This document shows, piece after piece, positions 4,965-55,444 of a stretch of DNA of 64,000 nt. How positions within the stretch are numbered: the stretch's first letter is position 1; each line of letters opens with the position of its first letter. The notes under the pieces were generated by a model. The model did no database searches. It was not told the DNA's origin and worked only from the letters and a program-made list of their open reading frames with translations. The position numbers and the translations under genes were made by a program. Location: the NCBI RefSeq assembly GCF_056712565.1, contig NZ_CM160072.1. One strand, written 5' to 3'.

Positions 4965-5154
4965 AGATACAACAAAGCCGGGAATTACCCGGCTTTGTTA
5001 TGGAATAAGGCGGTGCCTAACTCGACGTTTCGCCCGATGGTTGATATAGCTACGCTGATATCAGAAGTTGGACGGCAGGCACCTTGTTGTGCGTCATTCG
5101 AATTTTATGTAGCACCTCCCGAAGGGGCTGACATAAGTCGGTGAATGAGCCACT
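4965..5154 (-). ncRNA. glmY: GlmY small RNA
   Basis: Minus-strand sequence AGTGGCTCATTCACCGACTTATGTCAGCCCCTTCGGGAGG…AAAGCCGGGTAATTCCCGGCTTTGTTGTATCT matches GlmY as recalled, including the terminator hairpin. Confidence 0.8.
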
Positions 5155-14031: not shown

Positions 14032-14393
14032 TCGTTTTTCCTTAAACAAGGAATGCAGCCGTTCAGATTAGCCCTTACATCTCCCCAAAACTGAACGTGC
14101 GAGTTATTGGAATCGAGTGCTGCACTCCACACCAGAGCTTTGACGACACCACTCGTTTCAATGGGGGAATTCAGTGGCATGGTGTAAAGCACAGCAAAAT
14201 TGCCAATAACGAAACCGATTTTAATGTACTTATCAAAAAGCGGTCACGTTAATCTTTTCATCAATGTCGATTTCTTCGTAAAGGCTCGCGTTTTTTATGT
14301 CAGAGATTGCAAGTTGCTTGTACAGGTCAACGAAATTGATCCATAATCATTTTCGTTGGAATCGTGTGCTGCACAAAATTAAAGTTAAAAAGT

Positions 14394-14426
14394 AAAACCC
14401 CCGTTCCTTACCAGTTCGGGGGTTTT
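14394..14426. terminator. Hairpin terminator downstream of acpS
   Basis: aaaacccccg…cgggggtttt followed by a T-rich tract. Confidence 0.5.
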
Positions 14427-14451
14427 ACTTTATAAAGAGAACGGTATTATT

Positions 14452-16314: not shown

Positions 16315-17927
<1,613 letters not shown>

Positions 17928-18163
17928 TCAGCACACGAAACAGACCTGATATACATAGCTCTGCTAACTGCTTCGCTGCAGTTTAGCGGTATATGGGGAC
18001 CAACGCTGTTTCGTGTGCCGTGGCAACCTGGAGGTGCCAACCTTAAACTTCGGGGGAATATTCTATACACAACGACGGGGGATGTCGTTAGCCACGGGAG
18101 ATTTATCTCATAAATAATTCACGTTGTCGCCATAACGGCGACAACGTGAACGAAGATGGGCTA

Positions 18164-19153: not shown

Positions 19154-20953
19154 TTATTTGTTGTCTTTGCCGACGTGCAGAATGGCGAGGAACGCTTCCT
19201 GCGGCAGCTCGACGTTACCGATCTGCTTCATGCGTTTCTTACCTTCTTTCTGCTTCTGCAGCAGCTTTTTCTTACGACTGATATCGCCGCCATAACATTT
19301 AGCCAGTACGTTTTTACGCAGCTGTTTCACGGTGGAGCGCGCAATGATGTGCGTACCAATCGCTGCCTGAATGGCGATATCAAACTGCTGGCGCGGGATC
19401 AGATCTTTCATCTTCTCCACCAGCTCGCGACCGCGGTTTTGCGAATTACCACGATGGGTGATCAGCGCCAACGCATCAACACGTTCACCGTTGATTAATA
19501 CGTCTACACGTACCATGTCGGACGCCTGGAAGCGTTTGAAGTTGTAATCCAGAGACGCATAACCACGCGAGGTAGATTTCAGGCGATCGAAGAAATCGAG
19601 CACCACTTCCGCCATCGGGATCTCGTACGTCAGCGCCACCTGATTACCGTGGTAAACCATATTGGTCTGCACGCCGCGTTTTTCTACGCACAGCGTAATA
19701 ACGTTGCCGAGATATGCCTGCGGCAGCAGCATGTGACATTCTGCAATCGGCTCGCGCAGTTCGTAGATGTTATTTACCGCTGGCAGCTTGGATGGGCTGT
19801 CGACGTAGATAACTTCTCTTGACGTGGTTTCAACTTCATACACTACGGTCGGCGCAGTGGTGATCAGATCCAGATCGTATTCACGTTCCAGACGTTCCTG
19901 GATGATCTCCATGTGCAGCAGACCGAGGAAGCCGCAGCGGAAACCAAAGCCCAGCGCGCTTGAGCTTTCCGGCTCATAGAACAGTGAGGCATCGTTCAGG
20001 CTGAGTTTACCCAGCGCGTCACGGAAGGCTTCATAGTCGTCGGAACTTACCGGGAACAGACCGGCGTATACCTGCGGTTTGACTTTCTTAAAGCCAGGCA
20101 GCGCCTTTTCTGCCGGATTACGCGCCAGCGTTAAGGTATCGCCTACTGGAGCGCCGTGGATATCTTTAATCGCACATACCAGCCAGCCTACTTCGCCACA
20201 TTTCAGTTCAGTGCGGTCAACCTGTTTTGGCGTAAAAATACCCAGACGGTCGGCGTTATAGGTCTGCCCGGTACTCATGACTTTCACTTTGTCGCCCTTA
20301 CGCAGGGTGCCGTTTTTAATACGGATAAGTGAAACAACGCCCAGGTAGTTGTCGAACCAGGAGTCGATAATGAGTGCCTGTAACGGGCCTTCCGGATCGC
20401 CTTCCGGCGGCGGAATGTCGCGCACCAGACGTTCGAGAACGTCCTGCACGCCAACGCCGGTTTTCGCTGAACAGCGCACCGCGTCAGTGGCGTCGATGCC
20501 GACGATATCTTCAATTTCTTCCGCCACGCGTTCAGGATCAGCTGCCGGCAGGTCAATCTTGTTCAGTACCGGCACCACTTCGAGATCCATTTCCATGGCG
20601 GTGTAGCAGTTTGCCAGGGTTTGCGCTTCTACGCCCTGCCCGGCGTCGACCACCAGCAATGCACCTTCACATGCAGCCAGCGAACGAGAAACTTCATAGG
20701 AGAAGTCTACGTGGCCCGGGGTGTCGATAAAGTTAAGCTGATAGGTTTCGCCGTCAGACGCTTTGTAGTCCAGCGTCACGCTTTGCGCTTTGATGGTAAT
20801 GCCACGCTCACGCTCAAGATCCATGGAATCGAGAACCTGCGCCTCCATTTCACGGTCAGACAGGCCACCGCAGATCTGGATAATACGGTCAGACAGCGTC
20901 GATTTACCGTGGTCAATGTGAGCTATGATCGAAAAGTTACGTATATTCTTCAT
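19154..20953 (-). CDS. lepA: Elongation factor 4 (LepA)
   Basis: 599-aa translational GTPase (AHIDHGKST). Confidence 0.95.
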
Positions 20954-21150
20954 AAAGTATGATTATTGTGCCTTAATGCCCGGTTAACCAGGCTTTTAGA
21001 AGTCGCTGTTCTGAGCTTAACGTCTGTATTAATAGAAACGCCGCATTCTACACTACAACATTGAGGCGAGGAAATGTTCATACCGTATGGATTGTGGTAT
21101 CTGGAAACGTCCTCGCATTTGTTATGCAAAATGCAACAAAGCCAGTGAAA

Positions 21151-21630
21151 TCACTGGCTCGCGTCTTCCGAAGATGTTTCAAATCGCACAAGGCCAGGCG
21201 GCAAGGCCACGCTTAAGATGATCGGTTGCCATTCTGCCCGGGCAGCAAACTTACGCGAGTAGCCGCGCGCAATCAGGAACCCGCCAAAACCGCCGAGGAT
21301 CGCACCACATAATGCTGCGACGTCAGAAGCAAAGAGTAGCTGAAATAGCGAAGCGATGAGGAATAATCCCACCAGCGGCGACATATAAACCAGTAATGCG
21401 GAGCTAAGCAGGCTGCCTTCGGCGATTCCTAATTCTACTTTTTGCCCCGGCACTAACGGCTCATCACAGGGTACGACAATGGTATGCGTGGTTTGCGGGC
21501 CAAGTTTATTCAACACGCGGCTACCGCAACCGGCGCGTGAAGCGCAGCTGCTGCATGAGGCTTTAACATCACAACTGACCAGCGCCTGCCCGTTTTGCCA
21601 GGAGACGACGGTAGCCCACTCTTTGATCAT
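21151..21630 (-). CDS. rseC: SoxR-reducing system protein RseC
   Basis: 159 aa; last gene of the rpoE-rseABC operon. Confidence 0.9.
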   Translation of the reverse strand: MIKEWATVVSWQNGQALVSCDVKASCSSCASRAGCGSRVLNKLGPQTTHTIVVPCDEPLVPGQKVELGIAEGSLLSSALLVYMSPLVGLFLIASLFQLLFASDVAALCGAILGGFGGFLIARGYSRKFAARAEWQPIILSVALPPGLVRFETSSEDASQ

Positions 21631-22583
21631 TGCGCTGCCCCGAACTTAATATTCTCGGCAATGCGTTTCGCCGTTTGCGGCGGCAGTTCACCGACAATGG
21701 TGATTTCGGCGTTATCACGTACGCTTGTACTGACGGTTCTGCGTCCGGTGCGCAACATCTGATCGCTGCTCGATGGCGTAGCGCGGTTAACGTTTACCGA
21801 GAAGCTGAATAATCCGTCGGAATAGAGACGTGATTCGATAGGCATGTTGTCCATCGTCGGTAGCGGACGTCGACTACTGGAAACTTCGCTAAAACCCTGT
21901 GGCAACCAGGTTGGCGTCCAGCTGAATTTAGCTTTTTCACCTACAGGAACAGAAAGCAACGGCGGCAAATTTGCCTTCGCCAGCGTCTGCATACTGCTGC
22001 TGATATCCTGATTGACGTTAAAAGCAATCACGCGAAATTGTTCCAGCGTTTCACCATCGCGATCAAGGAGATCAACCCGCATCGGTAATTTCGATTCGGT
22101 GTCCATCCACACAATGTAGCTGTAGCGTGTGCCATCACGGGCGACTACGCGAATGACTTCGCAAAGACGATCAGCAATACGCGTGCGTCCCACGGAGATA
22201 AAGTCGTAGTAAGGAGAAAGGCGTTTGAAATCGGTATAAATGAGCGATGGCAGAGAATCAACAATGTAATCGCCATTAAGCGTGAACGGTTCAAGGCCCG
22301 GCTCAAAGTAGCTGATTTCATTGCCGCGCTGTACCACTTCCCGGCGCGGGCCATCCATTTGCAACAGCTGTGCAAGCGGACGGTTATCGAGGCGTGCATG
22401 TCGATAACGCAGAGACTCAACACCCTGTTTATTGATGCTGATGAATGACAGCTCGTAATTCAGTGACTGACTGGCCAGGTTCATCTGCTGTAATAACGCC
22501 CCGGACGCGGGAGTGGCCGAGGCGTTAGCAGAGAATAACAGGCTACCTGTCACTAATGACATGGCAAACCAAAGTTGCTTCAT
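21627..22583 (-). CDS. rseB: Sigma-E regulatory protein RseB
   Basis: 318 aa with signal peptide. Confidence 0.9.
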   Translation of the reverse strand: MKQLWFAMSLVTGSLLFSANASATPASGALLQQMNLASQSLNYELSFISINKQGVESLRYRHARLDNRPLAQLLQMDGPRREVVQRGNEISYFEPGLEPFTLNGDYIVDSLPSLIYTDFKRLSPYYDFISVGRTRIADRLCEVIRVVARDGTRYSYIVWMDTESKLPMRVDLLDRDGETLEQFRVIAFNVNQDISSSMQTLAKANLPPLLSVPVGEKAKFSWTPTWLPQGFSEVSSSRRPLPTMDNMPIESRLYSDGLFSFSVNVNRATPSSSDQMLRTGRRTVSTSVRDNAEITIVGELPPQTAKRIAENIKFGAAQ

Positions 22584-23841: not shown

Positions 23842-23923
23842 CCGAGGTAAAGTCTCCCCAAACCAAATTTCCACGCGCTATCGAAACGCCACTCCATTAG
23901 CTGCAATTTGAGCAAGCAAAGGG

Positions 23924-42427: not shown

Positions 42428-42547
42428 ATGCCTGGCAGTTCCCTACTCTCGCATGGGGAGACCCCACACTACCATCGGCGCTACGGCGTTTCACTTCTGA
42501 GTTCGGCATGGGGTCAGGTGGGACCACCGCGCTAAGGCCGCCAGGCA
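42428..42547 (-). rRNA. rrf: 5S ribosomal RNA
   Basis: Reverse complement matches E. coli 5S rRNA (TGCCTGGCGGCC…GGGAACTGCCAGGCAT). Confidence 0.95.
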
Positions 42548-42640
42548 AATTCTGTTTCATTAACCCGCTTGTCGCCGGTTAATCTAATCTGTATCAGGCT
42601 GAAAATCTTCTCTCATCCGCCAAAACATCTTCGGCGTTGT

Positions 42641-45544
<2,904 letters not shown>

Positions 45545-45737
45545 TCACAACCCGAAGATGTTTCTTGCGATTCATCATCGTGTTGCGAAAATTTGAGAGA
45601 CTCACGAACAACTCTCGTTGTTCAGTGTTTCAATTTTCAGCTTGATCCAGATTTTTAAAGAGCAAATATCTCAAACATCACCCGAAGATGAGTTTTGAGA
45701 TATTAAGGCAGGTGACTTTCACTCACAAACCAGCAAG

Positions 45738-45813
45738 TGGCGTCCCCTAGGGGATTCGAACCCCTGTTACCGCCGTGAAAGGGCGGTGTCCTGGGCCTCT
45801 AGACGAAGGGGAC
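45738..45813 (-). tRNA. gltW: tRNA-Glu (UUC) in the 16S-23S spacer
   Basis: Reverse complement reads GTCCCCTTCGTCTAGAGGCCCAGGACACCGCCCTTTCACGGCGGTAACAGGGGTTCGAATCCCCTAGGGGACGCCA. Confidence 0.95.
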
Positions 45814-45898
45814 GTATCAGTCTGCTTCGCAAGACGCCTTGCTTTTCACTTTCTATCAGACAATCTGTGTGAGCACTGCAAAGTACGCTTCTTTAAGG

Positions 45899-47440
<1,542 letters not shown>

Positions 47441-47881: not shown

Positions 47882-50455
47882 TTACTGGACGGCGACGATC
47901 CGGTCTTCATTAACTTCCAGGCGAATAACTTTACCCGGAACCAATTCACCAGACAGTATTTGCTGTGCCAGCGGGTTTTCGATCTGCTGCTGGATAGCAC
48001 GCTTCAGAGGACGTGCACCATAGACCGGATCGTAACCGTTCTCGCTCAGCAGTTTCAGCACCTCGTCAGAAATGTGGATTTCATAACCACGTTCTTCCAG
48101 ACGTTTGTACAGACGTTTCAACTGAATCTGCGCAATCGACGCAATGTGTTGTTCACCCAGCGGATGGAAGACGACGACTTCATCGATACGGTTAATGAAT
48201 TCCGGACGGAAGTTATGGCTTACCACACCGAGCACCAGCTCTTTCATGTGCGCATAATCCAGTTCACCAAAACGTTCCTGAATCAGATCAGAACCGAGGT
48301 TAGAGGTCATAATGACGACCGTATTACGGAAGTCGACCGTTCTCCCCTGCCCGTCAGTCAGACGCCCATCATCCAGTACCTGCAACAGAATGTTGAAGAC
48401 ATCCGGATGCGCTTTTTCCACTTCATCCAGCAGGATGACGGAATACGGACGACGACGCACCGCTTCGGTCAGATAGCCACCTTCTTCATAACCAACATAT
48501 CCCGGAGGCGCACCAACCAGACGAGACACCGAGTGTTTCTCCATAAACTCGGACATATCAATACGGACCATCGCCTCGTCGCTATCAAACATAAAGTTCG
48601 CCAGCGCCTTACAAAGCTCTGTTTTCCCCACACCCGTTGGGCCGAGGAACAGGAATGAACCAATCGGGCGATTTGGATCCGCCAGCCCCGCACGGCTACG
48701 ACGAATAGCGTTAGATACCGCATCAACCGCTTCGTTCTGACCAATAACGCGATGATGCAGTTCTTGCTCCATACGCAGCAGTTTTTCGCGCTCGCTTTCC
48801 ATCATGCGAGAAACCGGAATTCCCGTCCAACGCGCCAGCACTTCAGCAATTTCGGCATCGGTCACTTTATTACGCAACAGACGCATAGTTTTGCCTTCGA
48901 GCTGCGTTGCGGCTTCCAGTTGCTTTTCCAGTTCCGGGATTTTGCCGTATTGCAGTTCAGACATCCGCGCCAGGTCACCCACACGGCGAGCCTGTTCAAT
49001 AGCGATTTTCGCCTGTTCCAGTTCCGCTTTAATGGTCTGCGTACCAGAAAGCGAGGCTTTCTCTGCTTTCCACTCTTCTTCTAACTCGGAGTACTGACGT
49101 TCTTTGTCGCTCAGTTCTTCGTTGAGCATATCCAGGCGTTTTTTACTGGCTTCATCAGACTCTTTCATTAACGCCTGTTGTTCCAGTTTGAGCTGGATGA
49201 TACGACGATCGAGTCGGTCGAGTTCTTCTGGTTTTGAGTCAATCTGCATACGAATGCTGGATGCTGCTTCATCGATCAGGTCGATGGCTTTATCCGGCAG
49301 CTGACGGTCAGCAATGTAGCGATGAGACAACGTCGCCGCTGCAACAATTGCCGGGTCAGTAATTTGCACATGGTGGTGCAGCTCGTAACGTTCTTTCAGG
49401 CCACGCAGAATCGCAATGGTATCTTCAACAGAAGGCTCGGCAACAAACACTTTCTGGAAACGACGTTCCAGCGCAGCATCTTTTTCGATGTACTGGCGAT
49501 ATTCGTCAAGCGTCGTGGCACCTACGCAGTGCAATTCACCACGCGCCAGCGCCGGTTTCAGCATGTTTCCGGCGTCCATTGCGCCATCGGCTTTACCCGC
49601 GCCGACCATGGTATGTAATTCGTCGATAAACAGGATGACGTTGCCTTCCTGTTTGGCAAGATCGTTAAGTACGCCTTTTAAACGTTCTTCAAACTCACCG
49701 CGATATTTCGCCCCAGCCACCAGCGCGCCCATATCCAGCGCCAGTACGCGGCGGCCTTTCAACCCTTCGGGCACTTCGCCGTTGATAATACGCTGCGCCA
49801 GACCTTCAACGATGGCAGTCTTACCGACGCCTGGTTCACCAATCAGTACCGGGTTATTTTTAGTACGACGTTGCAGCACCTGAATGGTACGGCGAATTTC
49901 TTCATCACGACCAATCACCGGATCGAGTTTACCCTGTTCGGCTCGTTCGGTAAGGTCGATGGTATATTTTTTCAAAGCCTGACGTTGGTCTTCAGCACCT
50001 TGATCGTTCACGCTTTCACCTCCACGCATTTGTTCAATCGCTTGAGTAATGTTGGCGGTGGTCGCCCCTGCTGCTTTCAGGATGTCGGCCAGCGTGCCGC
50101 GAGACTCAAGTGCCGCCAGAACGAACAGTTCTGACGAGATAAAGTTATCACCACGTTTTTGCGCCAGCTTGTCGCAAAGATTAAGAACGCGCACCAGATC
50201 CTGTGATGGCTGGACATCACCACCAGTACCTTCAACCTGCGGTAAACGATTTAATGCCTGATTGATATCTGTGCGCAACTGGCCAGCATTTATGCCAGCG
50301 GATGTTAATAAAGGACTAACCGAACCCCCTTCCTGATTCAGCAGGGCGCTCATTAAATGAAGTGGTTCGATGAATTGGTTGTCGTGCCCGAGTGCAAGTG
50401 ATTGGGCATCGGCAAGAGCAAGCTGGAATTTATTAGTAAGACGATCCAGACGCAT
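47882..50455 (-). CDS. clpB: Chaperone/disaggregase ClpB
   Basis: Start at [18 protein letters not shown] (857 aa); two AAA+ modules. Confidence 0.95.
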
Positions 50456-50489
50456 AACTCCTCCCATAACGGATCAAAGTTGCTACTGG

Positions 50490-50525
50490 AGATTAAATGA
50501 GGTCATCCCTCAATTATTCAAGGTT
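50490..50525 (-). promoter_or_regulatory. Sigma-32 heat-shock promoter of clpB (approximate)
   Basis: Minus strand CTTGAAtaattgagggatgacCTCATTTAat resembles the sigma-32 consensus CTTGAAA…CCCCATnT. Confidence 0.5.
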
Positions 50526-50584
50526 ATTGACCAGATTAATGTGAAAAGAAAATCACGCGTACCGGATCGTCTTGATTCTTTAGG

Positions 50585-52427: not shown

Positions 52428-53165
52428 ATGACGCGCATGAAATATCTGGTGGCAGCCGCCACACTAAGCCTGTTTTTGGCGGGTTGCTCGGGGTCAAAGG
52501 AAGAAGTACCTGATAATCCGCCAAATGAAATTTACGCGACTGCACAACAAAAGCTGCAGGACGGTAACTGGAGACAGGCAATAACGCAACTGGAAGCGTT
52601 AGATAATCGCTATCCGTTTGGTCCGTATTCGCAGCAGGTGCAGCTGGATCTCATCTACGCCTACTATAAAAACGCCGATTTGCCGTTAGCACAGGCTGCC
52701 ATCGATCGTTTTATTCGCCTTAACCCGACCCATCCGAATATCGATTATGTCATGTACATGCGTGGCCTGACCAATATGGCGCTGGATGACAGTGCGCTGC
52801 AAGGGTTCTTTGGCGTTGACCGTAGCGATCGCGATCCTCAACATGCACGAGCTGCGTTTAGTGACTTTTCCAAACTGGTGCGCGGCTATCCGAACAGTCA
52901 GTACACCACCGATGCCACCAAACGTCTGGTATTCCTGAAAGATCGTCTGGCGAAATATGAATACTCCGTTGCCGAGTATTATACAGAACGTGGTGCATGG
53001 GTTGCTGTCGTTAACCGCGTAGAAGGCATGTTGCGCGACTATCCGGATACCCAGGCTACGCGTGATGCGCTGCCGCTGATGGAAAATGCATACCGTCAGA
53101 TGCAGATGAATGCGCAAGCTGAAAAAGTAGCGAAAATCATCGCCGCAAACAGCAGCAATACATAA
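52428..53165 (+). CDS. bamD: Outer-membrane protein assembly factor BamD (TPR lipoprotein)
   Basis: 245 aa with lipobox LAGCSG. Confidence 0.95.
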
Positions 53166-53188
53166 CAGAAACCTGAAACACAAAACGG

Positions 53189-53201
53189 CAGCCTTGAGCT
53201 G
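53189..53201. repeat. IS4 target-site duplication, left copy
   Basis: cagccttgagctg is repeated exactly at 54628..54640 immediately outside the IS4 ends. Confidence 0.8.
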
Positions 53202-54627
53202 TAATGCCGATCAGTTAAGGATCAGTTGACCGATCCAGTGGCTGTGTAAGAATCCGGAAACGCTCACTTGTTTCCGGATTTTTTTATGCACATTGGACAG
53301 GCTCTTGATCTGGTATCCCGTTACGATTCTCTGCGTAACCCACTGACTTCTCTGGGGGATTACCTCGACCCCGAACTCATCTCTCGTTGCCTTGCCGAAT
53401 CAGGTACTGTAACGCTACGCAAGCGCCGTCTTCCCCTCGAAATGATGGTCTGGTGTATTGTTGGCATGGCGCTTGAGCGTAAAGAACCTCTTCACCAGAT
53501 TGTGAATCGCCTGGACATCATGCTGCCGGGCAATCGCCCCTTCGTTGCCCCCAGTGCCGTTATTCAGGCCCGCCAGCGCCTGGGAAGTGAGGCTGTCCGC
53601 CGCGTGTTCACGAAAACAGCGCAGCTCTGGCATAACGCCACGCCGCATCCGCACTGGTGCGGCCTGACCCTGCTGGCCATCGATGGTGTGTTCTGGCGCA
53701 CACCGGATACACCAGAGAACGATGCAGCCTTCCCCCGCCAGACACATGCCGGGAACCCGGCGCTCTACCCGCAGGTCAAAATGGTCTGCCAGATGGAACT
53801 GACCAGCCATCTGCTGACGGCTGCAGCCTTCGGCACGATGAAGAACAGCGAAAATGAGCTTGCTGAGCAACTTATAGAACAAACCGGCGATAACACTCTG
53901 ACGTTAATGGATAAAGGTTATTACTCACTGGGACTGTTAAATGCCTGGAGCCTGGCGGGAGAACACCGCCACTGGATGATACCTCTCAGAAAGGGAGCGC
54001 AATATGAAGAGATCAGAAAACTGGGTAAAGGCGATCATCTGGTGAAGCTGAAAACCAGCCCGCAGGCACGAAAAAAGTGGCCGGGACTGGGAAATGAAGT
54101 GACTGCCCGCCTGCTGACCGTGACGCGCAAAGGAAAAGTCTGCCATCTGCTGACGTCGATGACGGACGCCATGCGCTTCCCCGGAGGAGAAATGGGGGAT
54201 CTGTACAGTCATCGCTGGGAAATCGAACTGGGATACAGGGAGATAAAACAGACGATGCAACGGAGCAGGCTGACGCTGAGAAGTAAAAAGCCGGAGCTTG
54301 TGGAGCAAGAGCTGTGGGGTGTCTTACTGGCTTATAATCTGGTGAGATATCAGATGATTAAAATGGCGGAACATCTGAAAGGTTACTGGCCGAATCAACT
54401 GAGTTTCTCAGAATCATGCGGAATGGTGATGAGAATGCTGATAACATTGCAGGGCGCTTCACCGGGACGTATACCGGAGCTGATGCGCGATCTTGCAAGT
54501 ATGGGACAACTTGTGAAATTACCGACAAGAAGGGAAAGGGCCTTCCCGAGAGTGGTAAAGGAGAGGCCCTGGAAATACCCCACAGCCCCGAAAAAGAGCC
54601 AGTCAGTTGCTTAACTGACTGGCATTA
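53202..54627 (+). mobile_element. IS4 insertion sequence, 1426 bp
   Basis: 18-bp terminal inverted repeats TAATGCCGATCAGTTAAG / CTTAACTGACTGGCATTA (16 of 18 match), 442-aa IS4-type transposase, 13-bp direct repeats. Confidence 0.9.
53286..54614 (+). CDS. insG: IS4 transposase (DDE)
   Basis: Start at [22 protein letters not shown] (442 aa). Confidence 0.9.
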
Positions 54628-54640
54628 CAGCCTTGAGCTG
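54628..54640. repeat. IS4 target-site duplication, right copy
   Basis: cagccttgagctg. Confidence 0.8.
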
Positions 54641-54819
54641 CCGTTTTTTTATTCTGTTAGTTGTGAAACTGAAGCGATTTAGTCACTATCGATCTCATCA
54701 AATATGGCTCGCTTTGAGATATTCCTCAAGTAAAAAAACACCTCTTCCTGCGATTTCTCACAAAAAAGATTCGTTGACAAAAAGTGACAAAATTATGAGA
54801 TTTCCATCACACATTTTGA

Positions 54820-55215
<396 letters not shown>

Positions 55216-55238
55216 TCCTTTATATTGAGTGTATCGCC

Positions 55239-55264
55239 AACGCGCCTTCGGGCGCGTTTTTTGT
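55239..55264 (+). terminator. raiA terminator
   Basis: aacgcgcc-ttcg-ggcgcgtt followed by tttttt. Confidence 0.6.
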
Positions 55265-55318
55265 TGACAGCGTGAAAACAGTACGGGTACTGTACTAAAG
55301 TCACTTAAGGAAACAAAC

Positions 55319-55366
55319 ATGAAACACACACCGTTTTTCTTCGCATTCTTTTTTACCTTCCCCTGA
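55319..55366 (+). CDS. pheL: pheA leader peptide (Phe-rich attenuation peptide)
   Basis: atg…tga encodes MKHTPFFFAFFFTFP*, seven Phe in 15 aa. Confidence 0.85.
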   Translation: MKHTPFFFAFFFTFP

Positions 55367-55414
55367 ATGGGAGGCGTTTCGTCGTGTGAAACAGAATGCG
55401 AAGACGAACAATAA

Positions 55415-55444
55415 GGCCTCCCAAATCGGGGGGCCTTTTTTATT
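55415..55444 (+). terminator. pheA attenuator terminator
   Basis: aggcctccc-aaatc-ggggggcct followed by ttttttt, between pheL and pheA. Confidence 0.7.

Follow-up and report, generated by a model that had tools for sequence, protein, structure and literature searches.

A complete IS4 in the terminator-like hairpin between bamD and raiA of Escherichia coli

The bamD-raiA locus and its IS4 copy

In the window that we analysed, a stretch of 64,000 nucleotides (NCBI RefSeq assembly GCF_056712565.1, contig NZ_CM160072.1), the genes bamD and raiA are separated by an insertion sequence, its target duplication and the outer remnants of a predicted terminator. The features of this interval and of its two neighbours are as follows.

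52428-53165, plus strand: bamD coding sequence, 245 aa, the upstream neighbour (open reading frame list and RefSeq annotation of identical sequence)
53182-53188, plus strand: left outer remnant of the predicted bamD terminator, A-run AAAA and outer stem CGG (sequence and empty-site reconstruction)
53189-53201, no strand: target duplication, left copy, CAGCCTTGAGCTG, inner stem and loop of the predicted terminator (repeat finder)
53202-54627, plus strand: complete IS4, 1426 bp (identity to insG-annotated copies and to K-12 IS4)
53202-53219, plus strand: left inverted repeat (IRL), TAATGCCGATCAGTTAAG
53226-53253, plus strand: promoter-like TTGACC-16-AAGAAT (TG-extended), the presumed transposase promoter
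53248-53285, plus strand: IS4-internal terminator-like hairpin with U7 (inverted repeat, fold and covariation)
53286-54614, plus strand: insG transposase gene, 442 aa (open reading frame, Pfam and YREK motif)
54588-54623, minus strand: right-end hairpin, terminator-like and inward-facing (scan and fold)
54610-54627, minus strand: right inverted repeat (IRR), TAATGCCAGTCAGTTAAG in the minus-strand reading, i.e. the reverse complement of the plus strand
54628-54640, no strand: target duplication, right copy (repeat finder)
54641-54650, plus strand: right outer remnant of the predicted bamD terminator, outer stem CCG and T7 (sequence and fold of 54590-54655)
54796-54837, plus strand: retained raiA promoter region, as read from the sequence
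54874-55215, plus strand: raiA coding sequence, 113 aa, the downstream neighbour (open reading frame list and RefSeq annotation of identical sequence)

The element at 53202-54627 is a complete IS4 of 1426 bp on the plus strand, with its transposase gene co-directional with bamD and raiA. Many complete E. coli genomes hold copies, annotated as insG or as "IS4-like element IS4 family transposase", that are 100% identical to it, and the annotated IS4 of K-12 MG1655 matches it at 1425 of 1426 positions, the sole mismatch being at IS position 1242. IS4, with its 18-bp ends and duplications of about one helical turn, is long established. In keeping with this description, the ends of the window element are of ~18 bp and start with TAATGCC, and the direct repeats CAGCCTTGAGCTG at 53189-53201 and 54628-54640, given by the repeat finder and read in the sequence, form an exact duplication of 13 bp, within the 10-13 bp that make up about one helical turn. 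The only long open reading frame of the element (53286-54614) is intact and encodes 442 aa, with Pfam matches to Nterm_IS4 (3e-33) and DDE_Tnp_1 (3e-31), and carries at residue 307 the YREK motif, Y(2)R(3)E(6)K, as defined in PMC2266710. The near-identity to K-12 IS4 and the intact transposase bear out the initial annotation of a complete 1426-bp IS4 between bamD and raiA, and both the 13-bp target duplication that it reported and the limits that it gave to the whole interval (53189-54640) are exact. The 18-bp inverted repeats that it described are indeed present, but they are imperfect, IRL and IRR matching at 16 of 18 positions. An assembly artefact is ruled out by the perfect duplication and by the presence of the insertion in ~400 complete genomes. 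As to the surroundings, the gene order of the window is that of the usual E. coli rluD-bamD-raiA-pheLA region, and the window flanks are identical to those of B2/ST95-type strains, e.g. APEC O1, S88 and UM146.

The interrupted site and its occupation in other genomes

Removal of the IS together with one copy of the repeat gave a rebuilt empty site reading AAAACGGCAG-CCTTGAG-CTGCCGTTTTTTT or, in wider context, ACACAAAACGGCAG-CCTTGAG-CTGCCGTTTTTTTATT, with the target laid out as AAAA-CGG-[ CAGCCTTGAGCTG ]-CCG-TTTTTTT, where the bracketed part is the inner stem and loop. Over 600 bp, this reconstruction matches, with 100% identity, the region found between bamD and raiA in many E. coli genomes, and the uninterrupted site is present in 5016 of 5426 complete genomes of this species. 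The terminator scan found the empty site of APEC O1 to be terminator-like, with an 11-pair stem (6 GC), a 5-nt loop and a T-run, 17 nt past the bamD stop codon; the fold of the empty site has an energy of -19.3 kcal/mol (z = -4.9), well outside what chance would give. In K-12, the loop of this hairpin is longer by one C (CCCTTGAG); we term this version the 8-nt-loop allele. The GC-rich stem-loop, the U-tract and the nearness of the stop codon support the assignment of the pre-insertion bamD site as a putative rho-independent terminator; our literature searches found no paper that maps an RNA 3' end or measures termination at this site. It had initially been proposed that the duplicated target corresponds to the loop and inner stem of a bamD terminator palindrome, and that a comparison with the empty site would be informative: once run, this comparison came out in favour of the proposal, in that the IS-free site does carry the hairpin and the rebuilt sequence folds as a terminator-like structure. 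The proposed loss of the bamD-side hairpin upon insertion also held, the left junction keeping only a 5-bp stem (z = -0.75).

A junction query identified IS4 at exactly this site, in the orientation of the window, in 335-336 complete E. coli genomes, and in the opposite orientation in 69 further genomes. The 405 occupied genomes represent 7.5% of all 5426 and ~16% of the 2479 genomes with a full IS4 copy, and they correspond to nearly all of the 409 matched genomes covering less than 80% of the uninterrupted 600-bp site. What the initial annotation had treated as a one-off insertion is, at this frequency and in both orientations, a recurrent hot-spot polymorphism. For scale, IS4 is found next to nanX, its site in K-12, in 967 genomes, and at the mug/rpoD site in 38, both counts being for a single orientation. 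Clonal expansion or selection could underlie the orientation bias at the bamD site (336:69, or 4.9:1).

The duplications were determined from both junctions in 11 loci, namely ten genomes and the window. Compilation of these data revealed that (i) the 7-nt-loop allele has a duplication of 13 bp in both orientations, (ii) the 8-nt-loop allele has one of 14 bp, again in both orientations, or of 12 bp in strain VR50, and (iii) both loop alleles exist as empty sites. From the two orientations and the duplication lengths of 12, 13 and 14 bp tied to the loop allele, with both alleles existing as empty sites, we infer at least five independent classes of insertion event, a count drawn from this sample of 11 loci and not based on a phylogeny. 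Occupancy differs even among close relatives, the site being filled in ST95-32 and empty in APEC O1, S88 and UM146; such polymorphism suggests recent mobility, and the open reading frame and both ends of the window copy are intact. An IS4-like element also lies in the orthologous terminator upstream of raiA (CAGCCCGCGGGCTG / CCGTTTTTTT) on contig L031, whose 82% nucleotide identity to E. coli indicates that it belongs to another enterobacterial genus.

Target sites of IS4 and of elements sharing its ends

Three other IS4 sites of E. coli, one adjoining nanX (aaacac[ CAGAACCAAGAT ]gcctattt; 12-bp duplication in K-12), one within yicI (aaatgg[ CAGCCAGGTCTG ]gcgattt) and one in the convergent mug/rpoD terminator (aaaaaacgc[ CACCGAAAAGGTG ]gcgttt), all fit the pattern AAA-N3-[CAS...]-N3-TTT. 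The duplication ends in STG at two of these three sites, while the nanX-side end is GAT, then ATTT. Mayaux et al. are said to have derived, in 1984, an IS4 consensus of AAA-N20-TTT from an insertion in the pheST attenuator, and the target of IS231A is GGG-N5-CCC flanked by A/T tracts. For the IS4 subgroup, De Palmenaer, Siguier and Mahillon (2008; PMC2266710) described conserved A-rich and T-rich arms around a duplication of variable length. Beyond this, our literature search on IS4 target specificity turned up nothing but general work on IS elements and on REP sequences.

A scan of metagenome contigs for the IS4 terminal 18-mer recovered 120 loci, with 127 unique flanks reading outward from the element. 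Nucleotide similarity to IS4 was limited to 31 of these loci, and transposase similarity to 11. Most flanks stem from relatives or MITE-like elements, and the profile given here applies to this broader set with IS4 ends, which also includes contigs that break off within the IS, rather than to IS4 itself. Counted outward from the IS end, the 127 flanks are G/C-rich at positions 1-4, A/T-rich at positions 5-8 and G/C-rich at positions 9-14, and T accounts for 50-77% of the bases at positions 15-19 and for 73-77% at positions 16-18. Four or more consecutive T, starting at positions 11-25, occur in 63% of the flanks versus 8% of the controls, and a mini-hairpin of at least 3 bp from position 1 in 74% versus 12%, the controls being random positions of the same contigs and not intergenic positions. 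Five two-ended MITE-like copies with exact duplications of 10-12 bp rebuild, when emptied, into perfect bidirectional terminators made of an A-run, a stem-loop and a T-run, as in aaaaaaCCG[ GCTTACAAGGC ]CGGtttttttt. The strict motif was counted 3 times in the IS-free window versus 0.05 expected, a count to which we give little weight because the motif was partly derived from the bamD site itself.

The rule read from these sites (A-run, ~3 bp, duplicated inner stem and loop, ~3 bp, T-run) is, to judge by its sequence layout, the shape of an intrinsic terminator, and the predicted bamD terminator, AAAA-CGG-[13 bp]-CCG-T7, appears as a near-ideal instance of it. This close fit would explain why the bamD terminator is a recurrent hot spot. 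Since the cut points would follow the A and T tracts, the length of the duplication would track the size of the hairpin, which in turn would explain the range of 12-14 bp observed at the bamD site.

Terminator-like hairpins, neighbouring transcription and known systems

IS4 itself carries a terminator-like hairpin at each end. At the left end, arms at 53248-53261 and 53270-53283 and a U7 at 53279-53285, which ends directly at the transposase ATG, make up a hairpin with a 14-15-bp stem, lying 47-84 nt inside the IS (-26.3 kcal/mol, z = -5.9). In 30 diverged left ends from the metagenome loci, this layout of hairpin, U-run and ATG is found again with stems of differing sequence, and RNAalifold, applied to 23 sequences (the window copy and 22 others), showed double compensatory changes in 8 of 13 pairs. 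This covariation across relatives argues that the left-end hairpin works, termination being its predicted effect. A simple consensus terminator scan of the plus strand did not list this hairpin, probably owing to the extension of its stem into the T-run. A promoter-like TTGACC-16-(C/A)A(A/G)AAT is found at a fixed distance in 26 of 32 left ends, including the window IS4 and near-identical copies, and its -10 hexamer doubles as the 5' base of the hairpin. The right-end hairpin, at 54598-54623, includes part of IRR and runs, on the minus strand, into TCTTTTTC; it ranks first among the minus-strand terminator-like hits of the scan (fold of -18.7 kcal/mol, z = -5.4), and an equivalent aaaaaTGCCAGTCAG-CTTAA-CTGACTGGCA hairpin is present in many right ends of relatives, which were not counted. 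As both hairpins face inward, IS4 would replace the terminator that it destroys in either orientation. A preprint (10.1101/2025.07.22.666184) reports an enrichment of terminator-like sequences within ISs and immediately upstream of them, and interprets these sequences as limiting transposase expression.

The initial suggestion that bamD transcripts may read into IS4 stands for ~85 nt, but beyond this point the conserved hairpin and U7 at 53248-53285 most likely replace the lost terminator, and the concern about read-through is probably overstated. Past the transposase stop codon, all that the plus strand holds is a stem of 4 bp, set apart from U7 by CCG; this is predicted to be a weak stop for transcripts leaving IS4. 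Given that no good plus-strand terminator follows the transposase gene, weak transcription out of IS4 toward raiA may occur. In the classical description, IS4 exerts polarity in either orientation. The proximal promoter of raiA appears intact, as had been anticipated: 246 bp of native DNA are retained between IS4 and the raiA ATG, including CRP-like half-sites TGAGA-N6-TCACA at 54796-54811 and a -10-like TATGCT at 54832-54837. Contig L031, from the other genus, has an aligned and better CRP-like site, TGTGA-N6-TCACG, and the CRP site upstream of raiA is a putative one, assigned from sequence. raiA has been reported to be under cAMP-CRP control and to be induced by cAMP-CRP and ppGpp (PMC8778775).

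Overall, we consider it probable that a canonical, intact IS4 inserted by a cut-and-paste mechanism into a terminator-shaped hot spot, where its own hairpins replace the lost terminator, and that the outcome is a near-neutral polymorphism. IS4-type transposases would pick an A-run, ~3 bp, a short GC-rich palindrome with an AT-rich centre, ~3 bp and a T-run, and strand transfer ~3 bp inside each A/T tract would leave the inner stem and loop as the duplicated segment, 10-14 bp long depending on hairpin size. Insertion destroys the bamD hairpin, but IS4 supplies inward-facing terminator-like hairpins at both ends; bamD transcripts would then stop at 53248-53285, ~85 nt into IS4, and the bamD 3' UTR would be ~70-80 nt longer. 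The left hairpin would also shield the transposase gene from outside transcription, in that incoming transcripts would contain both arms and terminate, whereas IS4's own transcripts would start within the hairpin, the promoter -10 lying at its base, and so escape termination. raiA keeps a promoter of its own, of the cAMP-CRP type, and only a small net effect on either gene would be expected. In this account the element is a known one, its target preference is broadly known, and the insertion is a common, already annotated polymorphism. It is conceivable, though we put it forward as a tentative idea only, that IS4-subgroup transposases recognise terminators by structure (a cruciform, or bent DNA made of an A-tract, a palindrome and a T-tract), and that IS4 acts as a self-insulated "terminator-replacement cassette" in a genomic safe harbour. 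The transfer points would then sit ~3 bp inside the A/T tracts regardless of how large the hairpin is, and their being set by these tracts would explain the unusual 10-14-bp range of duplications, which follows the loop allele.

The same observations may be read otherwise. Loss of bamD termination, with transcription running through IS4, driving the transposase, maybe reaching raiA and altering the expression of both genes, would agree with a left junction that has only a 5-bp stem and no U-tract, with the sense orientation of IS4, and with the lack of a canonical plus-strand terminator from the transposase stop codon to raiA, where only the 4-bp stem, CCG and U7 are seen. We nevertheless find this unlikely, since the 14-15-bp hairpin with U7, conserved by covariation, sits 47-84 nt inside the IS, and since bamD is essential, yet ~400 complete genomes carry the insertion, in both orientations, so that it cannot be very harmful. 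Recurrence could also be the mark of selection, if the insertion beneficially changed the expression of raiA (ribosome hibernation) or of bamD through insulation or outward transcription; the high frequency (7.5% of genomes), the 4.9:1 orientation bias and the genomes in which the copy at this site is the only IS4 would all suit such an adaptive role. Against it, the target rule alone predicts the site, both orientations occur, the raiA promoter region is untouched, and the transposase is frameshifted in several copies at this site, as expected for a decaying neutral passenger; furthermore, our literature search found no paper on an insertion, a hot spot or phenotypes involving IS4 together with bamD or raiA. 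We accordingly hold an adaptive insertion to be quite improbable.

One ancient insertion that was then passed on vertically, or spread by recombination, would account for the identical junctions that are common to many carriers (e.g. 11-14 genomes at 100% identity). It is hardly credible in view of the close relatives that are devoid of the insertion (APEC O1, S88 and UM146, as opposed to the filled ST95-32), of the occupied orthologous site in another genus (L031), and of the match between each duplication (12, 13 or 14 bp) and the loop allele of its host; a strictly single origin is refuted by the two orientations and the three duplication lengths.

For the window, the consequence is little: the insertion, which hundreds of RefSeq genomes carry as an annotated feature, is a common and probably near-neutral polymorphism, and its neighbours look unharmed. 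It may serve as a strain or lineage marker, and it is a possible substrate for rearrangement. In Shigella sonnei, a ~45-kb inversion from raiA to bamE is flanked by IS4-family copies (PMC12795559, 2026), which is consistent with an IS4 copy at the bamD-raiA site acting as substrate for recombination. The insertion is also a caution that an IS in a terminator need not mean loss of termination. The wider pattern, in which IS4-type ends nearly always lie in terminator hairpins and replacement terminators apparently come from the element itself, would be that of a transposon limiting its own cost.

The closest known counterpart is the IS4 of K-12 (insG, b4278; "insertion sequence:IS4", NC_000913.3), which has the same length, ends and 442-aa transposase, is identical at 1425 of 1426 positions, and has a duplication of the same size class (12 bp next to nanX versus 13 bp at the window site). 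It differs only in location, next to nanX as opposed to the bamD terminator. In IS10 and IS50, fold-back inhibition insulates the transposase genes from outside transcription. The likeness to these elements, and to IS200, whose left-end terminator is cited in preprint 10.1101/2025.07.22.666184, would lie in a hairpin near the IS end that forms only in outside transcripts, the element's own promoter starting inside or after it. Unlike them, IS4 has a full hairpin with U7 abutting the ATG and a second, inward-facing hairpin at the other end, with their function being predicted. The bamD site, which reads AAA-N19/20-TTT, resembles the target arms of the IS4 subgroup (PMC2266710); that paper is devoid of the word "terminator" (0 occurrences), whereas here the target is an intrinsic-terminator hairpin, with cuts ~3 bp inside the A/T tracts. 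Finally, the REP-targeting elements IS621 and IS1397 (PMC1525189, PMC3184786) share with IS4 the insertion into intergenic stem-loops and the recurrent occupation of a site, but they rely on other transposase types or on sequence-specific REP recognition, while IS4, a DDE element of the IS4 family, would target terminators in general and leaves duplications of varying length.

Variant and interrupted copies of IS4 in E. coli

In the bamD-raiA IS4 variants of strains RM14723 (locus L001), 2014C-3338 (L004) and APEC O2-211 (L005), a sequence of IRL type (CTTAACTGATCGGCATTA) stands at the right end of IS4, so that the terminal repeats agree at 18/18 positions; this change would leave the right-end hairpin weaker. 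The copies of 2014C-3338 and APEC O2-211 are 1427 bp long and are annotated as frameshifted. In E. coli LR-58-1 (L139, NZ_AP027553.1), an IS200C is nested in IS4 at IS4 positions 46-48; the insertion point is exactly the 5' foot of the left-end terminator-like hairpin, whose start at window 53248 corresponds to IS4 position 47, so that a second IS has landed beside the same structure. The observation also covers hit H15.

IS4-ended elements in environmental contigs and another genus

Environmental contigs contain elements of 154-239 bp that carry the IS4 terminal 18-mers, exact and inverted, at both ends but have no transposase between them. Their appearance is that of MITE-like derivatives; several enclose a Pseudomonas-REP-like sequence, and they are located in perfect bidirectional terminators with duplications of 10-12 bp.

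Short IS4-ended elements (locus, coordinates)
L032, 623-777
L038, 3091-3244
L095, 4318-4477
L070, 1277-1472
L092, 1615-1853
L123, 2974-3139
L100, 1323-1477

The orthologous bamD-raiA terminator on a metagenome contig from a different enterobacterial genus (L031 1-420, Ga0160473_100742; 82% nucleotide identity to the window) is likewise the site of an IS4-like element, oriented as in the window. The CRP-like site aligned upstream of raiA on this contig is the better of the two, reading TGTGA-N6-TCACG.

Target motifs and RNA features in the window

The strict IS4 target motif, AAA-N3-CAS-N6-8-STG-N3-TTT, has two more matches in the window, both unoccupied, at 23884-23909 and at 54733-54756, the latter in the raiA upstream region only ~100 bp downstream of IS4. 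The three matches in the IS-free window compare with 0.05 expected from first-order Markov shuffles, the motif being partly derived from the bamD site itself.

The K-12 annotation includes RaiZ (b4805), a 3'-UTR-derived small RNA overlapping the end of raiA (L140 2882-3043). The equivalent region of the window, ~55101-55262, comprising the 3' part of raiA and the terminator, is present together with its terminator hairpin; Rfam returned no family there. The Rfam features elsewhere in the window are ordinary ones, expected for this chromosomal region, and none is unusual.

Window features (all from Rfam except the hairpin)
5007-5154, GlmY
14355-14431, ohsC
17843-18051, rncO
20835-21666, AsrC
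42430-47440, rRNA operon with tRNA-Glu
50436-50574, RyfD
55239-55258, terminator hairpin 3' of raiA
55318-55443, Phe leader

An inversion in Shigella sonnei

Genomes of Shigella sonnei lineages 2 and 3 are reported to carry a ~45-kb inversion across raiA...bamE with IS4-family transposases flanking it (PMC12795559), which suggests that an IS4 copy at the same bamD-raiA site serves as a recombination substrate in this species.
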